A stretch of DNA of 29,409 nt from positions 1 to 29,409 of IMG/VR virus record IMGVR_UViG_3300025635_000123; one strand, given 5' to 3'. The DNA is from a virus. Taxonomy: Duplodnaviria; Caudoviricetes. Position 1 is the stretch's first letter. Each line of letters starts with the position of its first letter. The notes beneath the pieces are model-generated. The model was not told the DNA's origin. It did not search any database and worked only from the letters and a program-made list of their open reading frames with translations. Made by a program: the position numbers and the translations under genes. Below are positions 18,676 through 29,409 of this stretch, piece by piece.

Positions 18676-18809
18676 ATAGCTGGGTTAATTTCTTTTCTCT
18701 CCTCTTTTTTATGCTGGGGAAGATACACCGAGGCTGAGCAACATTCAGATAAAAAAGCTGCAATAATGTTGCAATATCGACTACATTTCGTACAAACAAA
18801 AATCTTCAC
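18672..18809 (-). CDS. 45-aa Cys-rich protein (not in the ORF track)
   Basis: GTG start, (M)KIFVCTKCSRYCNIIAAFLSECCSASVYLPQHKKEERKEINPAI; ATGA overlap with the next gene. Confidence 0.6.
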   Translation of the reverse strand: MKIFVCTKCSRYCNIIAAFLSECCSASVYLPQHKKEERKEINPAI

Positions 18810-18816
18810 CCTTGTC

Positions 18817-18861
18817 ACTATATCATAGTCACGCTTCTGTCAATTGCTGTTTTGTGGATAA
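18817..18861 (-). promoter_or_regulatory. Candidate promoter with upstream DnaA box
   Basis: TTATCCACA (18861-18853), TTGACA (18843-18838), TGn-TATAGT (18822-18817); spacer only 15 nt. Confidence 0.45.
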
Positions 18862-19017
18862 CTTTCGACATTTCTTATGGGAAGCAAGACGCTCAGTACT
18901 GACCACTTCACCAGTAACAGCATTTTTTGCGGTCTTAACTAACCACTTCACCGCCTGGCCAGGAGCAGCCCACACTGCTTCTCCGCATATGTGACAATTT
19001 CCAATAATTTCGTTCAT
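18829..19017 (-). CDS. Small zinc-finger-like protein
   Basis: CHIC...HKKC; ATGA-coupled to TerL. Confidence 0.6.
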   Translation of the reverse strand: MNEIIGNCHICGEAVWAAPGQAVKWLVKTAKNAVTGEVVSTERLASHKKCRKLSTKQQLTEA

Positions 19018-21199: not shown

Positions 21200-21390
21200 G
21201 ATTAGCACACTCATCACACCTAACACACTGTTTCCTTAGAGTATATATAAATATTATTTATACATTGAAGTACTAATAGGAAAAAGGTATGGTATGCTAG
21301 CTTAAGTATGCTAAAAACAGCGATTTTAGCCCGTTTTAGCGGTTTATCCACAGCAAATAGTATGCTAAACGCCAAAAAGTATGCTAATTT
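21200..21390. other. Putative replication origin
   Basis: Four GTATGCTA repeats (21292, 21306, 21360, 21379), inverted TAGCACAC-like copies near 21203-21228, AT-rich core 21241-21280, perfect DnaA box 21344-21352; strand switch next to the primase-helicase gene. Confidence 0.7.
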
Positions 21391-21396
21391 CATTTT

Positions 21397-23508
21397 ATGT
21401 TAAAAACGCAAAAACGTGAGTGGGTGAACTGGAAATTGGAGCCAGTTAGGGGTGTTTTAACCAAAGTTCCGTATCAACCGAACGGAAATAAGGCCGCCAG
21501 TAACCGCGAAAGCACCTGGTCGACGTACGCCGAAGTTAAGGAAAAGGAGCATCTTTTTAATGGTATCGGCATAGTCTTTAATGGGACAAAAGTCGGGATC
21601 GATCTCGATCATGTGATTGAAAACGGCGCCCTAGTCGATAAAGCTTCACGTGACTTGGTGGACGCTTCAAACACGTATACTGAGATATCTCCGTCGGGAA
21701 CCGGACTACATGTTATCTTCAATTTGTCTGAACCTTTTTCTCCTATCTCCAAATCATATAAACCAAACGCGAAATATAAATACGAGTGCTACACCGAAAA
21801 GCGTTTCTTCACCGTAACGGAAAATATCTTTGAAGGTCGTGACACGGTACGCACGGTTGATGCTGTCACTATAGTAGAGATACTTTCAATTATCGGATAC
21901 CCCTGGAAAAAGGAAGTGAAACAAACACCGACGACCCTCGAAGTTGTGGGTCTCCAAGAAGACAAAATACTCGATACGATGTTTCGAGCATCAAACGGAA
22001 TAAATGCGAAGAAACTTTGGGAGGGAGATTCTAGTTTGTACAACAACGATGAATCTGCCGCTGATATGGCCTTCTGTAACCTACTCGCCTTCTATTCAGG
22101 AAAGCGGGCAGACGTAATCGAACGTCTATGGCTCGCGTCACCACGGGGGAATCGTGAAAAAACACGGACACGGAAAGATTATCGTGACCGTACTATAGCC
22201 GCAGCAATTGCTTATACTGAAAATGTTTTTACTGCTGATCGATCTCACGACGATGCGGTCGAGTACATAACGAAAAAGACAAAGAACGGGAACCAAATAC
22301 TACTCTGCACTGAAAATATACAGACATTTCTAAACTCGTCACCTCAATTCGCAGGACGATTCCGTTTTGATCTCTTTAAGCAGAAAATTGAGTTTAAGAA
22401 GCTCGATGTGTGGCAAGACCTGCAGGACGCCGATATTCTTTACGTGCAAAGCATTGTTTCTAGGGTGCATCCGGCCTTCGGCATGGTGTCGCGCACAATG
22501 GTTGAAGATGCTGTCTATTCGAACGCATACTCTCACTCGTTTGATTCTGTTGAGGAATATATAAGCGCTCTTGTGTGGGACGGTGTGCCGCGCCTTGATT
22601 CATGGCTCTCTAAGGCGTATGCGGTTCCCGATGACGCCTACCATCGCGCCGTAGGCTCAAATTGGCTCAAGGGCATGGTACACCGCGCTATGGTGCCTGG
22701 ATGTAAGTTTGACTACGTTCTTGTGCTTGAGGGGCCGCAGGGCTCTAAAAAGAGCATGTCCTTAAGCGCTCTCGCCTCACCCTGGCACGTTGAGACAACG
22801 CAGACCCCGGACAATAAAGACTTCTTCATGCTGTTTCTAGGCCACCTTGTGGTGGAGTTCGCAGAAGGCGAGACCATCTCACGGGCTGAGACGAAGAAAC
22901 TGAAAGCCATCATCACCATGCAGGAGGACGTGCTACGGCTCCCGTATGCCCATACCATATCTACAATCAAACGTCGCTGCGTATTTGCAATGACGACTAA
23001 CGAGGAACACTACCTTAAGGACGATACAGGGAACCGCCGGTGGCTCCCTGTGACCGTAGGGCCAAAGATTGATATTGAATGGATAAAGCAAAACCGCGAG
23101 CAGCTCTTTGCCGAGGCACACTACCGAGTCTCTGTTCTCAAAGAGACAACTTGGGAGTTCCCCAAAGAGGAAACGGAAGCGGCGCAAGCAGAACGTAGGC
23201 TCGTCGACCCACGAGCTGAGGAGATCGAGGATTGGTACATATCTCTATCTGAGGAACAGCGAAACATGGGCATAACGACGAAAATGGCGTTTGACGCAAT
23301 ATCTAACAAGAACACTACCGTTATTCTTCGCGAGCAAAAGATGAATCGGCTTGATGAGATGCAGATAGCGTCGATCCTTAAGACGACGCTACACCTTAAG
23401 AAAAAGCGTGTAATGATAAATGGAATCAATAAGAACCGTTACTTCCCTTCCGAAAAGACTCCGGCGGCGGTATCGCTTGAGCAACAGTTTGAGAACGCCT
23501 TTTTCTAA
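21397..23508 (+). CDS. Primase-polymerase (AEP, NrS-1-like) fused to a VirE/VapE-type helicase ATPase
   Basis: GIDLDH, EISPSGTGLH, helical bundle DESAADMAFCNLLAF, Walker A LEGPQGSKKS, LKDDTGNRRWLP. Confidence 0.9.
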   Translation: MLKTQKREWVNWKLEPVRGVLTKVPYQPNGNKAASNRESTWSTYAEVKEKEHLFNGIGIVFNGTKVGIDLDHVIENGALVDKASRDLVDASNTYTEISPSGTGLHVIFNLSEPFSPISKSYKPNAKYKYECYTEKRFFTVTENIFEGRDTVRTVDAVTIVEILSIIGYPWKKEVKQTPTTLEVVGLQEDKILDTMFRASNGINAKKLWEGDSSLYNNDESAADMAFCNLLAFYSGKRADVIERLWLASPRGNREKTRTRKDYRDRTIAAAIAYTENVFTADRSHDDAVEYITKKTKNGNQILLCTENIQTFLNSSPQFAGRFRFDLFKQKIEFKKLDVWQDLQDADILYVQSIVSRVHPAFGMVSRTMVEDAVYSNAYSHSFDSVEEYISALVWDGVPRLDSWLSKAYAVPDDAYHRAVGSNWLKGMVHRAMVPGCKFDYVLVLEGPQGSKKSMSLSALASPWHVETTQTPDNKDFFMLFLGHLVVEFAEGETISRAETKKLKAIITMQEDVLRLPYAHTISTIKRRCVFAMTTNEEHYLKDDTGNRRWLPVTVGPKIDIEWIKQNREQLFAEAHYRVSVLKETTWEFPKEETEAAQAERRLVDPRAEEIEDWYISLSEEQRNMGITTKMAFDAISNKNTTVILREQKMNRLDEMQIASILKTTLHLKKKRVMINGINKNRYFPSEKTPAAVSLEQQFENAFF

Positions 23509-25158: not shown

Positions 25159-25214
25159 CTATCCACAGGATACAGCTTTACAGCCAAGACGCAAGACAGT
25201 ATACTTGTGGACAA
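25159..25214 (+). promoter_or_regulatory. Sigma70 promoter bracketed by two DnaA-like boxes in opposite orientation
   Basis: CTATCCACA 25159-67; TTTACA-17-TATACT (25177-25205); TGTGGACAA 25206-14. Confidence 0.65.
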
Positions 25215-25215
25215 G

Positions 25216-25884
25216 ATGAGTACTGAGGTTGCGTCCTTTTACACACCAAAAAAATGGAAACCGACGTGCATCAGCTATTCATTCGCTCGCTTCTGGTACG
25301 ACAATAAAAAGGCGTTCCGATCTCGGTACTACTATGGGGAAAAACCACCAAGCAATCCTGCATACATATTCGGGAGTGCAATTTCAGACATGATAAAAAA
25401 CGAACCAGACCATCCACTTCTAAAGAATCTGCCACGATATTCAATGGTGGACGAGGAATATACCGTCATGCTCGGCGATGTTCGGTTTGTGTTTCACCCG
25501 GATATGTTTGAGCCTTTTACGTTCTCATTTCGAGAAATAAAAACAGGGATGCAAATATCAGGAGGTGTACCATCTTGGACGCAAGAAAAGGTTAACAACC
25601 ATATGCAGCTTGATTGCTACTCGCTTGGGATCGAGTCTCTCTTTGGACAAGTGAACGAACTATGCCACCTCGACTGGCTCGTGAAAGTTAGGCGCGATTC
25701 TTCGGTACTCCCATCAAAAACGAAGGCCGCGCTTGGAGTTGAGGGAGAGATTGCATTTGAAGGTGAAGTGATTACATTTGAGCGCGTTATCTCATCAGCG
25801 GAACGATACCGCGCGAAAGAATGGTTACTGCAAGCATTTTATGAGATTTTAGCGGATTTTAATAACGAAAAGAAAAATCTATGA
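25216..25884 (+). CDS. PD-(D/E)xK exonuclease (RecB/Cas4-like)
   Basis: ISYS, FGSAI, HPDMF, REIKTG, QLDCY; ATG 25216 preferred because the TTG extension overlaps the promoter. Confidence 0.8.
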   Translation: MSTEVASFYTPKKWKPTCISYSFARFWYDNKKAFRSRYYYGEKPPSNPAYIFGSAISDMIKNEPDHPLLKNLPRYSMVDEEYTVMLGDVRFVFHPDMFEPFTFSFREIKTGMQISGGVPSWTQEKVNNHMQLDCYSLGIESLFGQVNELCHLDWLVKVRRDSSVLPSKTKAALGVEGEIAFEGEVITFERVISSAERYRAKEWLLQAFYEILADFNNEKKNL

Positions 25885-26039
25885 ATCACGAAGATGTCAT
25901 CAAGGAACACTACAAAAAAATCGCTTCTCTCGGCGGCAAGAAGATCGCGGAACGCGGGCCAGACTATATGCGTGAACTTCAGAAGAAAGGAGTAGAAGCG
26001 AGAAAGCGCAGAAAGGCCGCAAAAGTTATCCCCAACTAG
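25881..26039 (+). CDS. 52-aa KGG-motif (YciG/GsiB-like) basic protein (not in the ORF track)
   Basis: YKKIASLGGKK...GPDYMRELQKKG; ATGA coupling. Confidence 0.7.
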   Translation: MNHEDVIKEHYKKIASLGGKKIAERGPDYMRELQKKGVEARKRRKAAKVIPN

Positions 26040-26071
26040 CTATTGCTCATTTACGGCATAGCTGATATATT
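26026..26071 (+). promoter_or_regulatory. Early sigma70 promoter
   Basis: TTATCCCCA 26026-34; TTGCTC-17-TATATT with extended TG; TTTACGGC in the spacer. Confidence 0.65.
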
Positions 26072-26088
26072 TTATTGAGAGATGAACA

Positions 26089-26287
26089 AGGGCGGGGTAG
26101 TCCGCGATGGATACAATAAACACCAAGATGTACATAGGTGTCACGTATCTATCGCAGACTCCCCCTACCCTCAGCAAAATCTCGAATCGTTCCTTGCGCT
26201 CTCTCATTCCTCATCCATTCTTTCGATACCGGTGCGCCGGTCGGCTACTCGCAAGGAAGCCCCAGTGGATGAGGAGTGACAGAGATT
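26089..26287 (+). ncRNA. Structured leader RNA or ncRNA of unknown family
   Basis: Long hairpin 26089-26171; 16-bp stem 26204-19/26264-79 enclosing two hairpins; G-U pairs form only on the + strand. Confidence 0.6.
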
Positions 26288-26310
26288 ATTAGAAATAACT
26301 GAGAAAGGTT

Positions 26311-26463
26311 ATGAGTTCACCAAATGTATTAGAAAGTGAAGATGTAATGTGCGAGTGCGGAGACTATCGAAGCGAGCATGTAGACGGCAATGAGCAATGC
26401 GTTATTAGCGGATGCGGTTGCAAAGAATATTTTGAACGCTTCCGAGAAGAAGAAATGCTATGA
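26311..26463 (+). CDS. 50-aa Cys/His metal-binding protein (not in the ORF track)
   Basis: CECG...H...C...CGC; GAAAGG upstream. Confidence 0.7.
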   Translation: MSSPNVLESEDVMCECGDYRSEHVDGNEQCVISGCGCKEYFERFREEEML

Positions 26464-26594
26464 AACCTGACATTGCAGACGACATCGAGAAGATGGTTGA
26501 TCACGTTAGGAATCACCATGGTTCCGAAACAGACCAACTATTCCAAGCAGCGCAGCGCATCGAAGCATGGTTAGCAACGTATAAAGGAAAGTAA
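26460..26594 (+). CDS. 44-aa hypothetical protein (not in the ORF track)
   Basis: MKPDIADDIEKMVDHVRNHHGSETDQLFQAAQRIEAWLATYKGK; coupled on both sides. Confidence 0.65.
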   Translation: MKPDIADDIEKMVDHVRNHHGSETDQLFQAAQRIEAWLATYKGK

Positions 26595-26595
26595 T

Positions 26596-27243
26596 ATGGA
26601 ACAAGTAATTACATTCGACCCAACTGTGGAACAACTCCAAACAATCGTCGCTTCGACAAAGGAGCTTACCGCAGGAGATCTCCCGAAAGTACACGAGGCG
26701 CGCATGTTTCTCCGAGACTCACGAGTCAAAATAGAAAAGAAAGGAAAGGAGTATCGTGCGGAAGCACTTGCCTATCAGAAAGCTGTCATCGCTCGTGAGA
26801 AAGAGCTGATCGCTATTATTGAGCCGGAGGAGGTGCGTTTGAAGGGGATAGAGGACGCCGCCGAAGCCGCAAGAGAACGTGCTGCACGAGCCCCACTCCT
26901 GCCGATGCGCCGCGAGCATCTAGCAAAGTTTGAGCACGTTTTGAGTGATGACGCTATCCTCGACATGGATAACAACGCCTTCTTTATGCTCCTCACTGAA
27001 TTGCAGGCAAAAAAGAATGAGGCTGACCGACTTGCTATTGAAGCGGAAAAAGCACGCCTCGCTCGTGAGGCTGATCATATTGATAGAGAGGATCAGGAAC
27101 GTAAGACGATTGAAAGTGAAAAACGTTACTATAATTGGCTTGCAAAAATTGGATACTCTAATAAATATGCAAACTTATGGTACTTCTCTAAAGAGGGTGG
27201 AACTATAAAAGCATACAAATACATTAGCACTTTCCAAAAATAA
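26596..27243 (+). CDS. Coiled-coil protein (possibly DUF1351-like)
   Basis: E/K/R/A-rich heptads; RVKIEK...K pattern. Confidence 0.65.
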   Translation: MEQVITFDPTVEQLQTIVASTKELTAGDLPKVHEARMFLRDSRVKIEKKGKEYRAEALAYQKAVIAREKELIAIIEPEEVRLKGIEDAAEAARERAARAPLLPMRREHLAKFEHVLSDDAILDMDNNAFFMLLTELQAKKNEADRLAIEAEKARLAREADHIDREDQERKTIESEKRYYNWLAKIGYSNKYANLWYFSKEGGTIKAYKYISTFQK

Positions 27244-27244
27244 C

Positions 27245-27439
27245 ATGGCAAGAACACTAGAAGAAGTAATCAAAGAGTATAGGGACGCCTTAGAAGTGAA
27301 CCTAGAACTCGCAAAGCAAGAAGCGATAATAAAACATCAACGAGAGGCAGCCAGAAAACGCCTCAACCTTGCGAAAGATGAATTACGAGCAATGGAATTA
27401 GAAATCTTAGAATCACAAAACTATGAAAACAATAATTGA
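27245..27439 (+). CDS. Small coiled-coil protein
   Basis: Tightly packed ORF with heptad pattern. Confidence 0.65.
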   Translation: MARTLEEVIKEYRDALEVNLELAKQEAIIKHQREAARKRLNLAKDELRAMELEILESQNYENNN

Positions 27440-27623
27440 GGAGCCGTTCGGACTTTACACCTTAAAGATGGCGAAAGCCGACAGTGACAGGGCATTAAAA
27501 CCCCACCGAGAGCACACCAAACGAGTGCAGCGATGGCAGGAATACGGTATGACCATCGTCACGGTAGGCTTTGCCTTTATGGGAGTATCAGCGTTCGCAT
27601 TAGCAGGAGTAACTAGCGTATGA
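27423..27623 (+). CDS. Small protein with C-terminal TM helix
   Basis: YGMTIVTVGFAFMGVSAFALAG. Confidence 0.65.
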   Translation: MKTIIEEPFGLYTLKMAKADSDRALKPHREHTKRVQRWQEYGMTIVTVGFAFMGVSAFALAGVTSV

Positions 27624-27835
27624 AAATAGCGGTATCCATTGTTATTGCAATTGTGCTGAGTAACCTCGTTACCTCGATGAATGGCGCAGGAATTATCTTG
27701 TTTTCTAAAGGGAATTGGTTCTTCGGGTTACTTTTACAGTTTCCGAACTACCTATGCGTGGTGTACGCCATTGTGAGGGTAATAGACTGGCTTACTGCTG
27801 CTCCCACTAGCAACACAGTGATAAAAGAAAATTAA
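27620..27835 (+). CDS. Small membrane protein (two hydrophobic segments)
   Basis: Hydrophobic 71-aa ORF. Confidence 0.65.
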   Translation: MKIAVSIVIAIVLSNLVTSMNGAGIILFSKGNWFFGLLLQFPNYLCVVYAIVRVIDWLTAAPTSNTVIKEN

Positions 27836-27842
27836 CTAGCGT

Positions 27843-28100
27843 ATGAAAAAGATATGGACAACAAGAGATGGTAAAGAAATACCGTACAAAAACATCGAAA
27901 ACGACCACCTCTTGAACATCATCAAGTTTGTTAAACGAAGGGCTAAAGAAATGGACGGAGAAGTAATTGACGGCGGCGGATGTTGCTGGGATACAGACGA
28001 CATATGGTACGTCATTGGCAGCGAACAGGATTGGCTCGATAAATACGATTACAAAGGATTGCTTGCTGAAACACGGAGAAGAAAATTAACTAGCGTATGA
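27843..28100 (+). CDS. Phage hypothetical protein
   Basis: WTTRDG...DHLLNII motif recurrent in small phage proteins. Confidence 0.7.
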   Translation: MKKIWTTRDGKEIPYKNIENDHLLNIIKFVKRRAKEMDGEVIDGGGCCWDTDDIWYVIGSEQDWLDKYDYKGLLAETRRRKLTSV

Positions 28101-28435
28101 ACCAAACGAGCTTGATTGACGACATGATGGACATAGCAAAGCGAGTTGACCGACTAGAACGGATGTATCAAATCGACGCCGATAAGAAGCCAGTGATTGA
28201 GTTCTGCTTTGATGAAATTTCTGACGTAGCAAGAATCGAGGCACTAATACTCTCATCAATCATGAGAATAAATGGTGACTATGAGCGAATACCGGGCAAT
28301 AGCGAGTTTAGTAATTGCCGTGATCACAACATCGGCCCAGTGATTTTCCGTCTTCGGTGCGATAAATTGACAGAAAACAAGCGCGGCGAAAAATTAGGCG
28401 TCGGTGACATGCTTTTTACCCATAGAATCTACTAG
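28097..28435 (+). CDS. Hypothetical protein
   Basis: Coupled ORF between two junction repeats. Confidence 0.6.
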   Translation: MNQTSLIDDMMDIAKRVDRLERMYQIDADKKPVIEFCFDEISDVARIEALILSSIMRINGDYERIPGNSEFSNCRDHNIGPVIFRLRCDKLTENKRGEKLGVGDMLFTHRIY

Positions 28436-28438
28436 CGT

Positions 28439-28684
28439 ATGAACCAAACAGAAAAGAAAGATGATTGGAGGGAGGTTCTGATGCAAGCGATGGGAGTTAC
28501 CACCACCGACCATGTTGTCAAGGGACACCCAACAGGAATCATAAATACCGTGGAAGAACTCCTACAAGCAACAAGAAAAGCTACGTTGGAGGAGGTAATC
28601 ACTAAAAGTTACGGCATACAAACCGCAACAGACGCCGATGAGTTTCGTAAAGAGTTACAAGAGCTTAAAGAAAAGAATGTATGA
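28439..28684 (+). CDS. Hypothetical protein
   Basis: Helical ORF starting in a junction repeat. Confidence 0.65.
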   Translation: MNQTEKKDDWREVLMQAMGVTTTDHVVKGHPTGIINTVEELLQATRKATLEEVITKSYGIQTATDADEFRKELQELKEKNV

Positions 28685-29004
28685 ACTACAAACTTGCAAA
28701 GCAACTGAAGGATGCTGGGTTTCCGTATTCAAAAAAAACGCAAGTCGGTTATTTTCAGAATGGTGAACGCGTACCAAATTACTACGCAGCGCAATCAGAA
28801 GGCGTCCCTCTACCCACTCTCTCAGAACTTATAGAGGCGTGTGGACACGGTTTTTCTTGTCTTCGCCACTTAGAATCTTTCCTCACCGGGGAGAATAAAT
28901 GGATAGCACAAAGCAATGAAGCAAAGAGCCGTTCATTCACTGGCTCAACCCCAGAAGAAGCAGTAACAAAGCTCTGGTTAGCACTCAAAGAAAAGAATGA
29001 CTGA
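28681..29004 (+). CDS. Phage hypothetical protein (ABA-sandwich-like)
   Basis: LAKQLKDAGFP, PTLSELIEAC, TPEEAVTKLWLAL. Confidence 0.7.
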   Translation: MNYKLAKQLKDAGFPYSKKTQVGYFQNGERVPNYYAAQSEGVPLPTLSELIEACGHGFSCLRHLESFLTGENKWIAQSNEAKSRSFTGSTPEEAVTKLWLALKEKND

Positions 29005-29251
29005 TATGAAAAACTCACAGCCTAAACGAGCCAAGTTGATCAGTGACGGCGGCCTTTACCGCTACCTACCTATCAAAGAGGTTGTTCCTACCATACACAT
29101 ACCCGTGATGAGGAGAATCAAGCTACGAACTCCTGAAATAGACCACGACGAAACATGGAAATTCGAGTTAGTTTATTCCTTAGAAAGAGTAACAAATGCT
29201 TTCGCAGAATATCGTCAAATTGATGCTATTAAAGTTATCAATAAACAATGA
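28997..29251 (+). CDS. Hypothetical protein
   Basis: Overlapping start, flanked by AATGACTGATATGA repeats. Confidence 0.6.
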   Translation: MTDMKNSQPKRAKLISDGGLYRYLPIKEVVPTIHIPVMRRIKLRTPEIDHDETWKFELVYSLERVTNAFAEYRQIDAIKVINKQ

Positions 29252-29409
29252 CTGATATGAGTTGTTTTTGGAGACACAAATGGGGAAAGTGGGCGGAAGA
29301 AAGTCGTATACCAATACAACAACTAATTGATGATGGAACGTCCGCTGGTCGATGGGTTCAAGCTGATACTATGATTGTCCAAAAGCGAATATGCGCTGAG
29401 TGTGGGTTG
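29248..29409 (+). CDS. Zinc-ribbon-like protein, truncated by the window edge
   Basis: MTDMSCFWRHKWGKW...RICAECGL. Confidence 0.65.
   Translation, partial: MTDMSCFWRHKWGKWAEESRIPIQQLIDDGTSAGRWVQADTMIVQKRICAECGL

Follow-up and report, generated by a model that had tools for sequence, protein, structure and literature searches.

The window analysed here is a linear stretch of 29,409 bases, the whole metagenomic record of an uncultured phage, with an estimated completeness of 84% and about 6 kb of the genome beyond its ends. All five sequencing runs containing the record are freshwater metagenomes; no RNA run is listed among those that contain the element described below, and the DNA contigs spanning it show no variants. 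The minus strand of the window carries the head and tail genes and the terminase, and the plus strand carries a primase-helicase, a resolvase and a PD-(D/E)XK-like nuclease, together with a series of small genes. This small-gene array (26311-29409, plus strand), read from its open reading frames and mostly encoding unknown products, begins with a gene at 26311-26463, one of two array genes that have weak PHROG matches; its place next to the primase, resolvase and nuclease module suggests that it is expressed early. Upstream of the element (25216-26039, plus strand) lie the nuclease gene, recognized by its fold and by feature neighbours in PF12705, and a gene for a 52-aa product. A promoter-like site at 25177-25205 precedes the nuclease gene, the transcript of which may read through into the element.

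A sigma-70-type promoter is predicted between the two gene groups at 26043-26071 (plus strand), with a -35 of TTGCTC, a 17-nt spacer and an extended -10 of TG-n-TATATT. The early promoter of the preliminary description is a consensus reading and is not listed by a consensus scan, its -35 matching the consensus at just 3/6 positions. It would place the start of transcription near 26078, which is where the fold begins, 233 nt before the first gene, so that the element would be a leader, 233 nt long, to the early small-gene array. Ahead of the promoter lies a 9-nt box, TTATCCCCA (26026-26034, plus strand), which we take to be DnaA-box-like; a similar box occurs at 25159, and each stands 8-9 nt before a -35. 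Across 426 kb (the window and its relatives), a -10-like hexamer lies 26-40 nt 3' of 21 of 88 such boxes, a count made without a shuffle control, and the best two folders among these 21 leaders are that of the element's promoter and one in a relative, G005. DnaA-box-like 9-mers just 5' of promoter-like sites recur in the window at 18853, 21344, 23511, 25159, 25206 and 26026 and are found in relatives too, which suggests a promoter element or regulator site shared across the phage group. TATGCT-type words are repeated around the box at 21290-21400, between the divergent primase and late genes and near the turn in GC skew, making this region a candidate origin or operator.

SD-like motifs precede only 3 of the 44 genes of the phage, and a relative of its 215-aa early protein is named from a Candidatus Pacebacteria bin. 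As the anti-SD is described as frequently lost in Parcubacteria (PMC9297842), these observations hint at a host among the Patescibacteria, a reasonable guess rather than a result. At 27612, 27835, 28089 and 28431 in the window, ACTAGCGT lies immediately 5' of the ATG of an early gene, possibly a signal for non-SD initiation or for coupling.

Fold of the element

Folding of 26078-26300 yielded -88 kcal/mol against a shuffle mean of -58 (z -6.81), a value equalled by none of 200 shuffles, and the 200-nt tile from 26001, over the first half of the element, ranked first among the 293 tiles of the window (8 shuffles each). The second-best tile (18801-19000; z -6.2, 8 shuffles) overlaps a small ORF just past the terminase and the minus-strand box at 18853. 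The minus strand of the element folds about equally (z -5.91), and both strands fold as single-stranded DNA (z -4.77 and -5.57). The element, about 210 nt in all and single-copy, comprises two domains of 88 nt and 86 nt that are 27 nt apart, and a weak 5' closing stem (pair probability 0.34) begins at the predicted +1. When the fold and its pair probabilities were computed, every stem named in the preliminary description lay where it had been placed.

Domain 1 (26084-26171, plus strand) is an interrupted rod of 28 pairs (z -6.7 on the plus strand, -7.5 on the minus) flanked by GAACAAGGG (26084-26092) and CUACCCU (26165-26171). Its 11-bp stem, 26104-26114 with 26145-26155, contains one G-U (26109-26150) and forms with pair probabilities of 0.99-1.0. 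The extensions AGUC/GACU (0.96-1.0), AGGG/CCCU (0.91-0.99) and ACACC/GGUGU (0.93-1.0) are nearly as firm, and GGGG/CCCC, the register of which slips, reaches only 0.57. A C-A mismatch lies at 26103/26156, and the apical loop has 12 nt. Prefix folding predicts that a 5-bp hairpin (26092-26105, plus strand) is the first to form and is then displaced as the rod zips, a second two-state feature that was absent from the preliminary description. The apical loop contains a self-complementary 8-mer (26128-26135, plus strand; self-duplex -9.2 kcal/mol), and a kissing dimer is possible on this model. An 8-nt palindrome arose in 478 of 20,000 loop shuffles, and the one seen here is absent from the related rod described in the next section.

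Domain 2 (26199-26284, plus strand) is built on a 16-bp stem (26204-26219 with 26264-26279) that encloses hairpins at 26228-26241 and 26243-26261; the fold of 26184-26286 has a z of -3.5 on the plus strand and -2.6 on the minus. Most pairs of the 16-bp stem, which includes two G-U, have probabilities of 0.95-1.0 (0.65 for the innermost), and an outer CUCU/AGAG extends it by four pairs (0.90-0.94). The ACCGG hairpin reaches 0.67-0.83 and the GGCU/AGCC hairpin 0.75-0.80, and the GCAA tetraloop previously assigned to the latter gives way to a 5-nt loop in the minimum-energy fold.

The proposed alternative pairing within this region does exist: 26190-26198 is a perfect 9-bp complement of 26250-26258 (both plus strand), and its 3' strand overlaps the GGCU/AGCC hairpin. 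Because an off-structure perfect helix of at least 9 bp arose in 21 of 400 architecture-preserving shuffles, the pairing is only marginally above chance. In prefix folding the 9-bp helix dominates in prefixes with 3' ends at 26258-26270; from 26274 on, the nested model no longer contains it, the closing 16-bp stem having taken its place. A rough penalty model puts the pseudoknot state at about -39.2 kcal/mol against -41.8 for the nested one, and, once the outer 4 bp open, linkers of 5 nt on either side appear long enough by geometric estimate. Energy and folding order thus make a pseudoknot or switch plausible, and the helix could be either a folding intermediate or part of a pseudoknot. The start codon of the first gene has an accessibility of 0.50 with or without the element, and neither state alters it.

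G-U pairs bear on which strand would act. Domain 2 contains three on the plus strand and none on the minus, and the related rod five and one, whereas domain 1 contains one on the plus strand and four on the minus. The plus strand is the more likely one for the element, and folding alone does not fix it. With this fold, its lack of conserved ORFs (below) and its place behind a promoter-like site, the locus agrees with the strongly structured non-coding element of the preliminary description; the structured element is real and uncatalogued, and it is very likely an RNA, in the predicted early transcript of the phage.

Known families and a related rod in another phage

No Rfam 15 family matched the window at its gathering score, and the five matches at E <= 10 were all far below gathering, in agreement with the expectation that the element belongs to no known family. 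Nor is it a tRNA or a terminator, as had been judged by eye: ARAGORN found no tRNA or tmRNA genes, and neither domain is followed by a plus-strand U-tail. SRP, RNase P, 6S and the HDV ribozyme were rejected on the absence of their characteristic motifs and of any Rfam match. The overlapping ORFs of 61-65 aa, the conservation of which would have spoken for a protein, have no credible homologues and were not called as genes. The 65-aa ORF has one match among 1.84 billion representatives, a tandem-repeat artefact, and the homologue search gave no match for the 61-aa ORF. Their codon scores (0.01 and -0.12, respectively) compare with 0.09-0.34 in 13 of 14 neighbouring genes, the exception being the first gene downstream of the element, for which there is a weak PHROG match. 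A motif search of three of the six supplements of a catalogue of viral candidate RNAs (PMC10690425) gave no match; its alignment files could list the RNA.

Pattern and model searches gave no close copy of the element. The 9-bp pair pattern occurs in 36 viral stretches, none of them similar to the element; an exact 19-mer search gave no match, and INPHARED and PLSDB gave chance matches only. A degenerate domain 2 pattern occurs in 59 stretches, including the record that holds the related rod (L062). The other inspected stretches with full stems (L071, L119, L112, L089 and L083, together with L106 and L080) were rejected as giant palindromes, repeats, coding sequence or intergenic stems of no relation to the element. 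For the nuclease, 14 relatives were found at 55-71% identity, several of them on contigs of 36-41 kb. A metagenome scan yielded only L058, a longer copy of the same virus that is identical across the RNA, and a terminase scan of genomes yielded none. A model built from a single sequence, R1, matched none of 14 further stretches, produced one non-self match in 23 loci and, at record level, matched none of 24 related records, missing L062. The flank pattern occurs in one of 55 records, that of L062.

L062 comes from a phage with a primase 44% identical over its full length and a similar replication module. It contains a rod of 103 nt (L062:17074-17176; z -5.1) in a 138-nt gap between genes of a small-gene array, about 750 nt downstream of a promoter bearing the same variant of the box. 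The rod ends as domain 1 does, with the first 9 nt and last 7 nt identical; the two have in common the position of the C-A mismatch and the CACC/GGUG tip, and their 5' ends are identical at 15/20 positions. L062 is the sole locus in 857 kb with at least 14/20 plus at least 6/7 matches, by motif criteria picked after the match was seen. Ten of 14 position-matched pairs differ on both sides in L062 and none is broken, and the flanks are kept around this divergent paired interior; as any two aligned rods give double changes, this is not covariation. The early hairpin of L062 is in register with that of the window and differs from it in two pairs, each changed on both sides, weak evidence alone (null 0.195). 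The interior stem of the L062 rod resembles the domain 2 stem of the window, and the loop of the rod is perfectly complementary over 9 nt to part of the 3' flank; this one likely homologue has no domain 2 built like that of the window. The model E-value of L062, from a search of five hand-picked loci chosen after the candidates were seen, is 0.064, and an unrelated-looking stem in L049 scores slightly better (0.037). The segment score for L062 shows no excess, being reached in 92 of 300 shuffles. Homology of domain 1 with the L062 rod is likely, not proven, on these sequence resemblances. Directly after the rod, L062:17213-17566 (plus strand) encodes a 117-aa protein with tandem 5-residue W-x-x-G repeats.

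The leader in G005 (L124:13485-13803) folds strongly (z -5.2) and has three short strings in common with the window RNA (4 of 300 shuffles). It was rejected as a homologue, since at least 15 of 2,492 arbitrary tiles beat its string score and R1 does not match it; it is possibly an analogue only. In this complete 37-kb terminase relative, L124:13438-13803 (plus strand) consists of the box and a -10 hexamer followed by about 300 folded nt, heads a small-gene array with tRNAs and has no Rfam match, which makes it a candidate for a separate ncRNA; a second folded gap surrounds a tRNA at about 14095-14563 of L124. Three further structures came to light in these searches. At L060:9053-9200 (plus strand), a long hairpin and then a U-tract lie between a box promoter and the start of the primase, a possible attenuator. 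A multi-copy inverted repeat with arms of about 17 nt and variable spacers, unrelated to the element, occurs in L003, L005, L009, L014, L017, L018, L022, L026-L028 and L033-L036, several of these records being about 150 kb. A near-perfect palindrome of more than 300 nt lies at L071:1700-2300, in a 174-kb virus record.

Possible roles in the early transcript

RNase III stems have places in the early RNAs of phages, for example in the lambda N leader. The element resembles the stems of T7, T3 and lambda, the RNAs of which are named as RNase III targets in PMC5371410, in its long interrupted helices, in its position in an early transcript, in the leader or between genes, and in a duplex of at least 22 nt, the minimum given there for a target. 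The 28 interrupted pairs of domain 1 exceed this length of about 22 nt, and domain 2, with 16+4, is borderline. The reference list of the same source includes a paper on 5' stem-loops that stabilize mRNA (PMC5371410). The element differs from such stems in its two domains, predicted pseudoknot, conserved stem-base sequence and probably non-SD host, and its cleavage is only proposed.

We tentatively favour, as the best of the explanations considered, a processing and stabilizing signal that acts in cis. On this reading one rod or both would be cleaved by a host nuclease specific for double strands, likely RNase III, and what stays folded, perhaps as a pseudoknot, would protect the message downstream against 5' decay; after cleavage within domain 1, domain 2 would stand guard at the 5' end of the message. 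Such a signal fits best with sites at the head of an array and, given homology with L062, between genes, with long rods and with the lack of a terminator after the element or downstream. The L062 rod, a likely homologue, stands between genes about 750 nt inside its array, more in keeping with a processing site than with an element tied strictly to a promoter. On the plus strand, terminator-like sites are absent from the window at 26300-29409 (3.1 kb) and from L062 past 17200 in a scan to which the Rho-dependent type is invisible, and this weakens the need for antitermination. Counting against this reading, the minus strand gives domain 1 the better fold. RNase III is largely tolerant of sequence differences, so that the conserved flanks suggest another binding partner.

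Other known RNAs resemble parts of the element. Like HK022 putL and putR, it is a structured RNA after an early promoter (predicted here) and before early genes, at the promoter or away from it (PMC9378689). The put RNAs are of about 70 nt, with two adjacent stem-loops, and bind the beta-prime zinc-binding domain (PMC9378689), whereas the element has about 210 nt, far longer stems and no sequence similarity to them, and a downstream terminator was not found. The UG27 reverse transcriptase ncRNA units are phage hairpins of about 135-167 nt in which short conserved motifs accompany a divergent interior and a pseudoknot; they are described as standing in arrays beside the reverse transcriptase and two accessory genes (10.64898/2026.09.22.753630), whereas the element has one copy and no reverse transcriptase was found in three records. 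With the flavivirus xrRNA, the pseudoknot model shares a 5' strand paired inside a later-closing loop that could ring the 5' end; xrRNAs are compact three-way junctions with conserved nucleotides, from eukaryotic RNA viruses, and block bacterial RNase J1 in vitro (PMC5760640), whereas the knot of the element is predicted and its helices are longer. It is a long shot that a threaded pseudoknot armours the early message as a bacterial counterpart of the xrRNA, the 9-bp helix forming first and the 16-bp stem then ringing it; domain 1 would be a module common to related phages, a rod whose protein-binding frame is conserved and whose interior can be exchanged, and the host would be ultra-small bacteria.

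Antitermination of the put or nut kind, in which the RNA, while being made, would bind the RNA polymerase of the host or bring in factors so that terminators in the early array are read through, seems unlikely to us. It would suit an element that begins about 7 nt past the predicted start site, flanks conserved in a way that suggests a protein partner, and the predicted ordered refolding path. A string at 26197 matches what we take to be the boxA consensus, but it is buried in the domain 2 stem, and no boxB-like hairpin was noticed. The places of the put elements, beside a promoter for putL and about 270 nt downstream for putR (PMC9378689), fit the window and L062 alike; against this stand the roughly threefold greater length of the element (about 210 nt against about 70 nt), the lack of a sequence match and the absence of plus-strand terminator-like sites downstream. 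The put-like antiterminator of the preliminary description is not shown, put being two adjacent stem-loops in about 70 nt (PMC9378689) and the 3.1 kb downstream having no terminator-like site. Also doubtful is an ncRNA, free-standing or released, that would act in trans (a decoy for proteins, an anti-defence RNA or a multimer) and in which the frame is conserved and the interior varies. Its own promoter-like site, the weak 5' closing stem (0.34) at the predicted +1 and the palindromic apical loop agree with such an RNA, as do conserved flanks around a divergent interior, a build like that of the UG27 hairpin units (10.64898/2026.09.22.753630). However, no terminator follows the element, so that release would require processing; it is single-copy, and a reverse transcriptase (PF00078) was found in none of the three records G000, G024 and G005 (two incomplete, G000 at 84%). 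Moreover, the window holds no complement of at least 12 nt elsewhere, and pairing to gene starts is not above shuffles: in a comparison for antisense action of the c4-type or anti-leader kind, none of six loops or arms exceeded shuffled controls against 44 start regions.

The U-rich reading of the conserved 5' flank and a terminator-like call in L062 led us to consider domain 1 on the minus strand, as an antisense RNA 3' end or an attenuator in which a small hairpin with a U-rich tail terminates transcription unless the rod forms; we regard this as improbable. The conserved flank becomes a U-rich tail on the minus strand at both loci, the scan calls a minus-strand terminator at the same place in L062, and the conserved C-A mismatch becomes a G-U pair in a domain 1 that is more stable on that strand. 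Yet the minus-strand promoter candidates (26335 and 26390) are weak and have no box, the small hairpin of the window has just 4 pairs there, and the G-U pairs of domain 2 (3 against 0) and of L062 (5 against 1) favour the plus strand. Multi-branch folds that contain G-U pairs are typical of RNA. The fold here is of that kind, and it lies exactly between the predicted start site and the first gene, both of which argue against a DNA-level hairpin serving the phage primase-helicase or nuclease as a replication origin, priming or recombination signal. That both strands fold as DNA (z -4.8 and -5.6), that the wobble bias is mixed and that the replication module is nearby would suit such a hairpin, but the turn in GC skew is near 21-22 kb, at short repeats ahead of the primase, and we hold it to be very improbable. 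Slighter still is the chance of a translational switch or riboswitch for the gene at 26311, or of a coding region for a peptide of 61-65 aa. Domain 2 does have two near-equal states, and open frames exist; against a translation switch stand the rarity of SD motifs in the phage (3 of 44 genes) and a start-codon accessibility of 0.50 either way, and against a peptide stand ORFs that were not called as genes, have low codon scores and find no match apart from the repeat artefact of the 65-aa frame.

As read here, with a processing and stabilizing signal as the tentatively preferred role, the element would work like known phage early-transcript elements and belongs to no family tested. No description of this RNA came up in a literature search, nor any paper on how RNA controls phages with non-SD hosts (probably Patescibacteria) or on the RNase III or J content of Patescibacteria. 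As a plain RNase III stem, it would carry a textbook device of phages into a new lineage; as a nuclease-blocking knot or a new polymerase-binding RNA, it would offer a portable part and a new mechanism. Its short conserved frame can be searched for and is thereby a handle on the processing, protection or elongation of early RNA in such phages.
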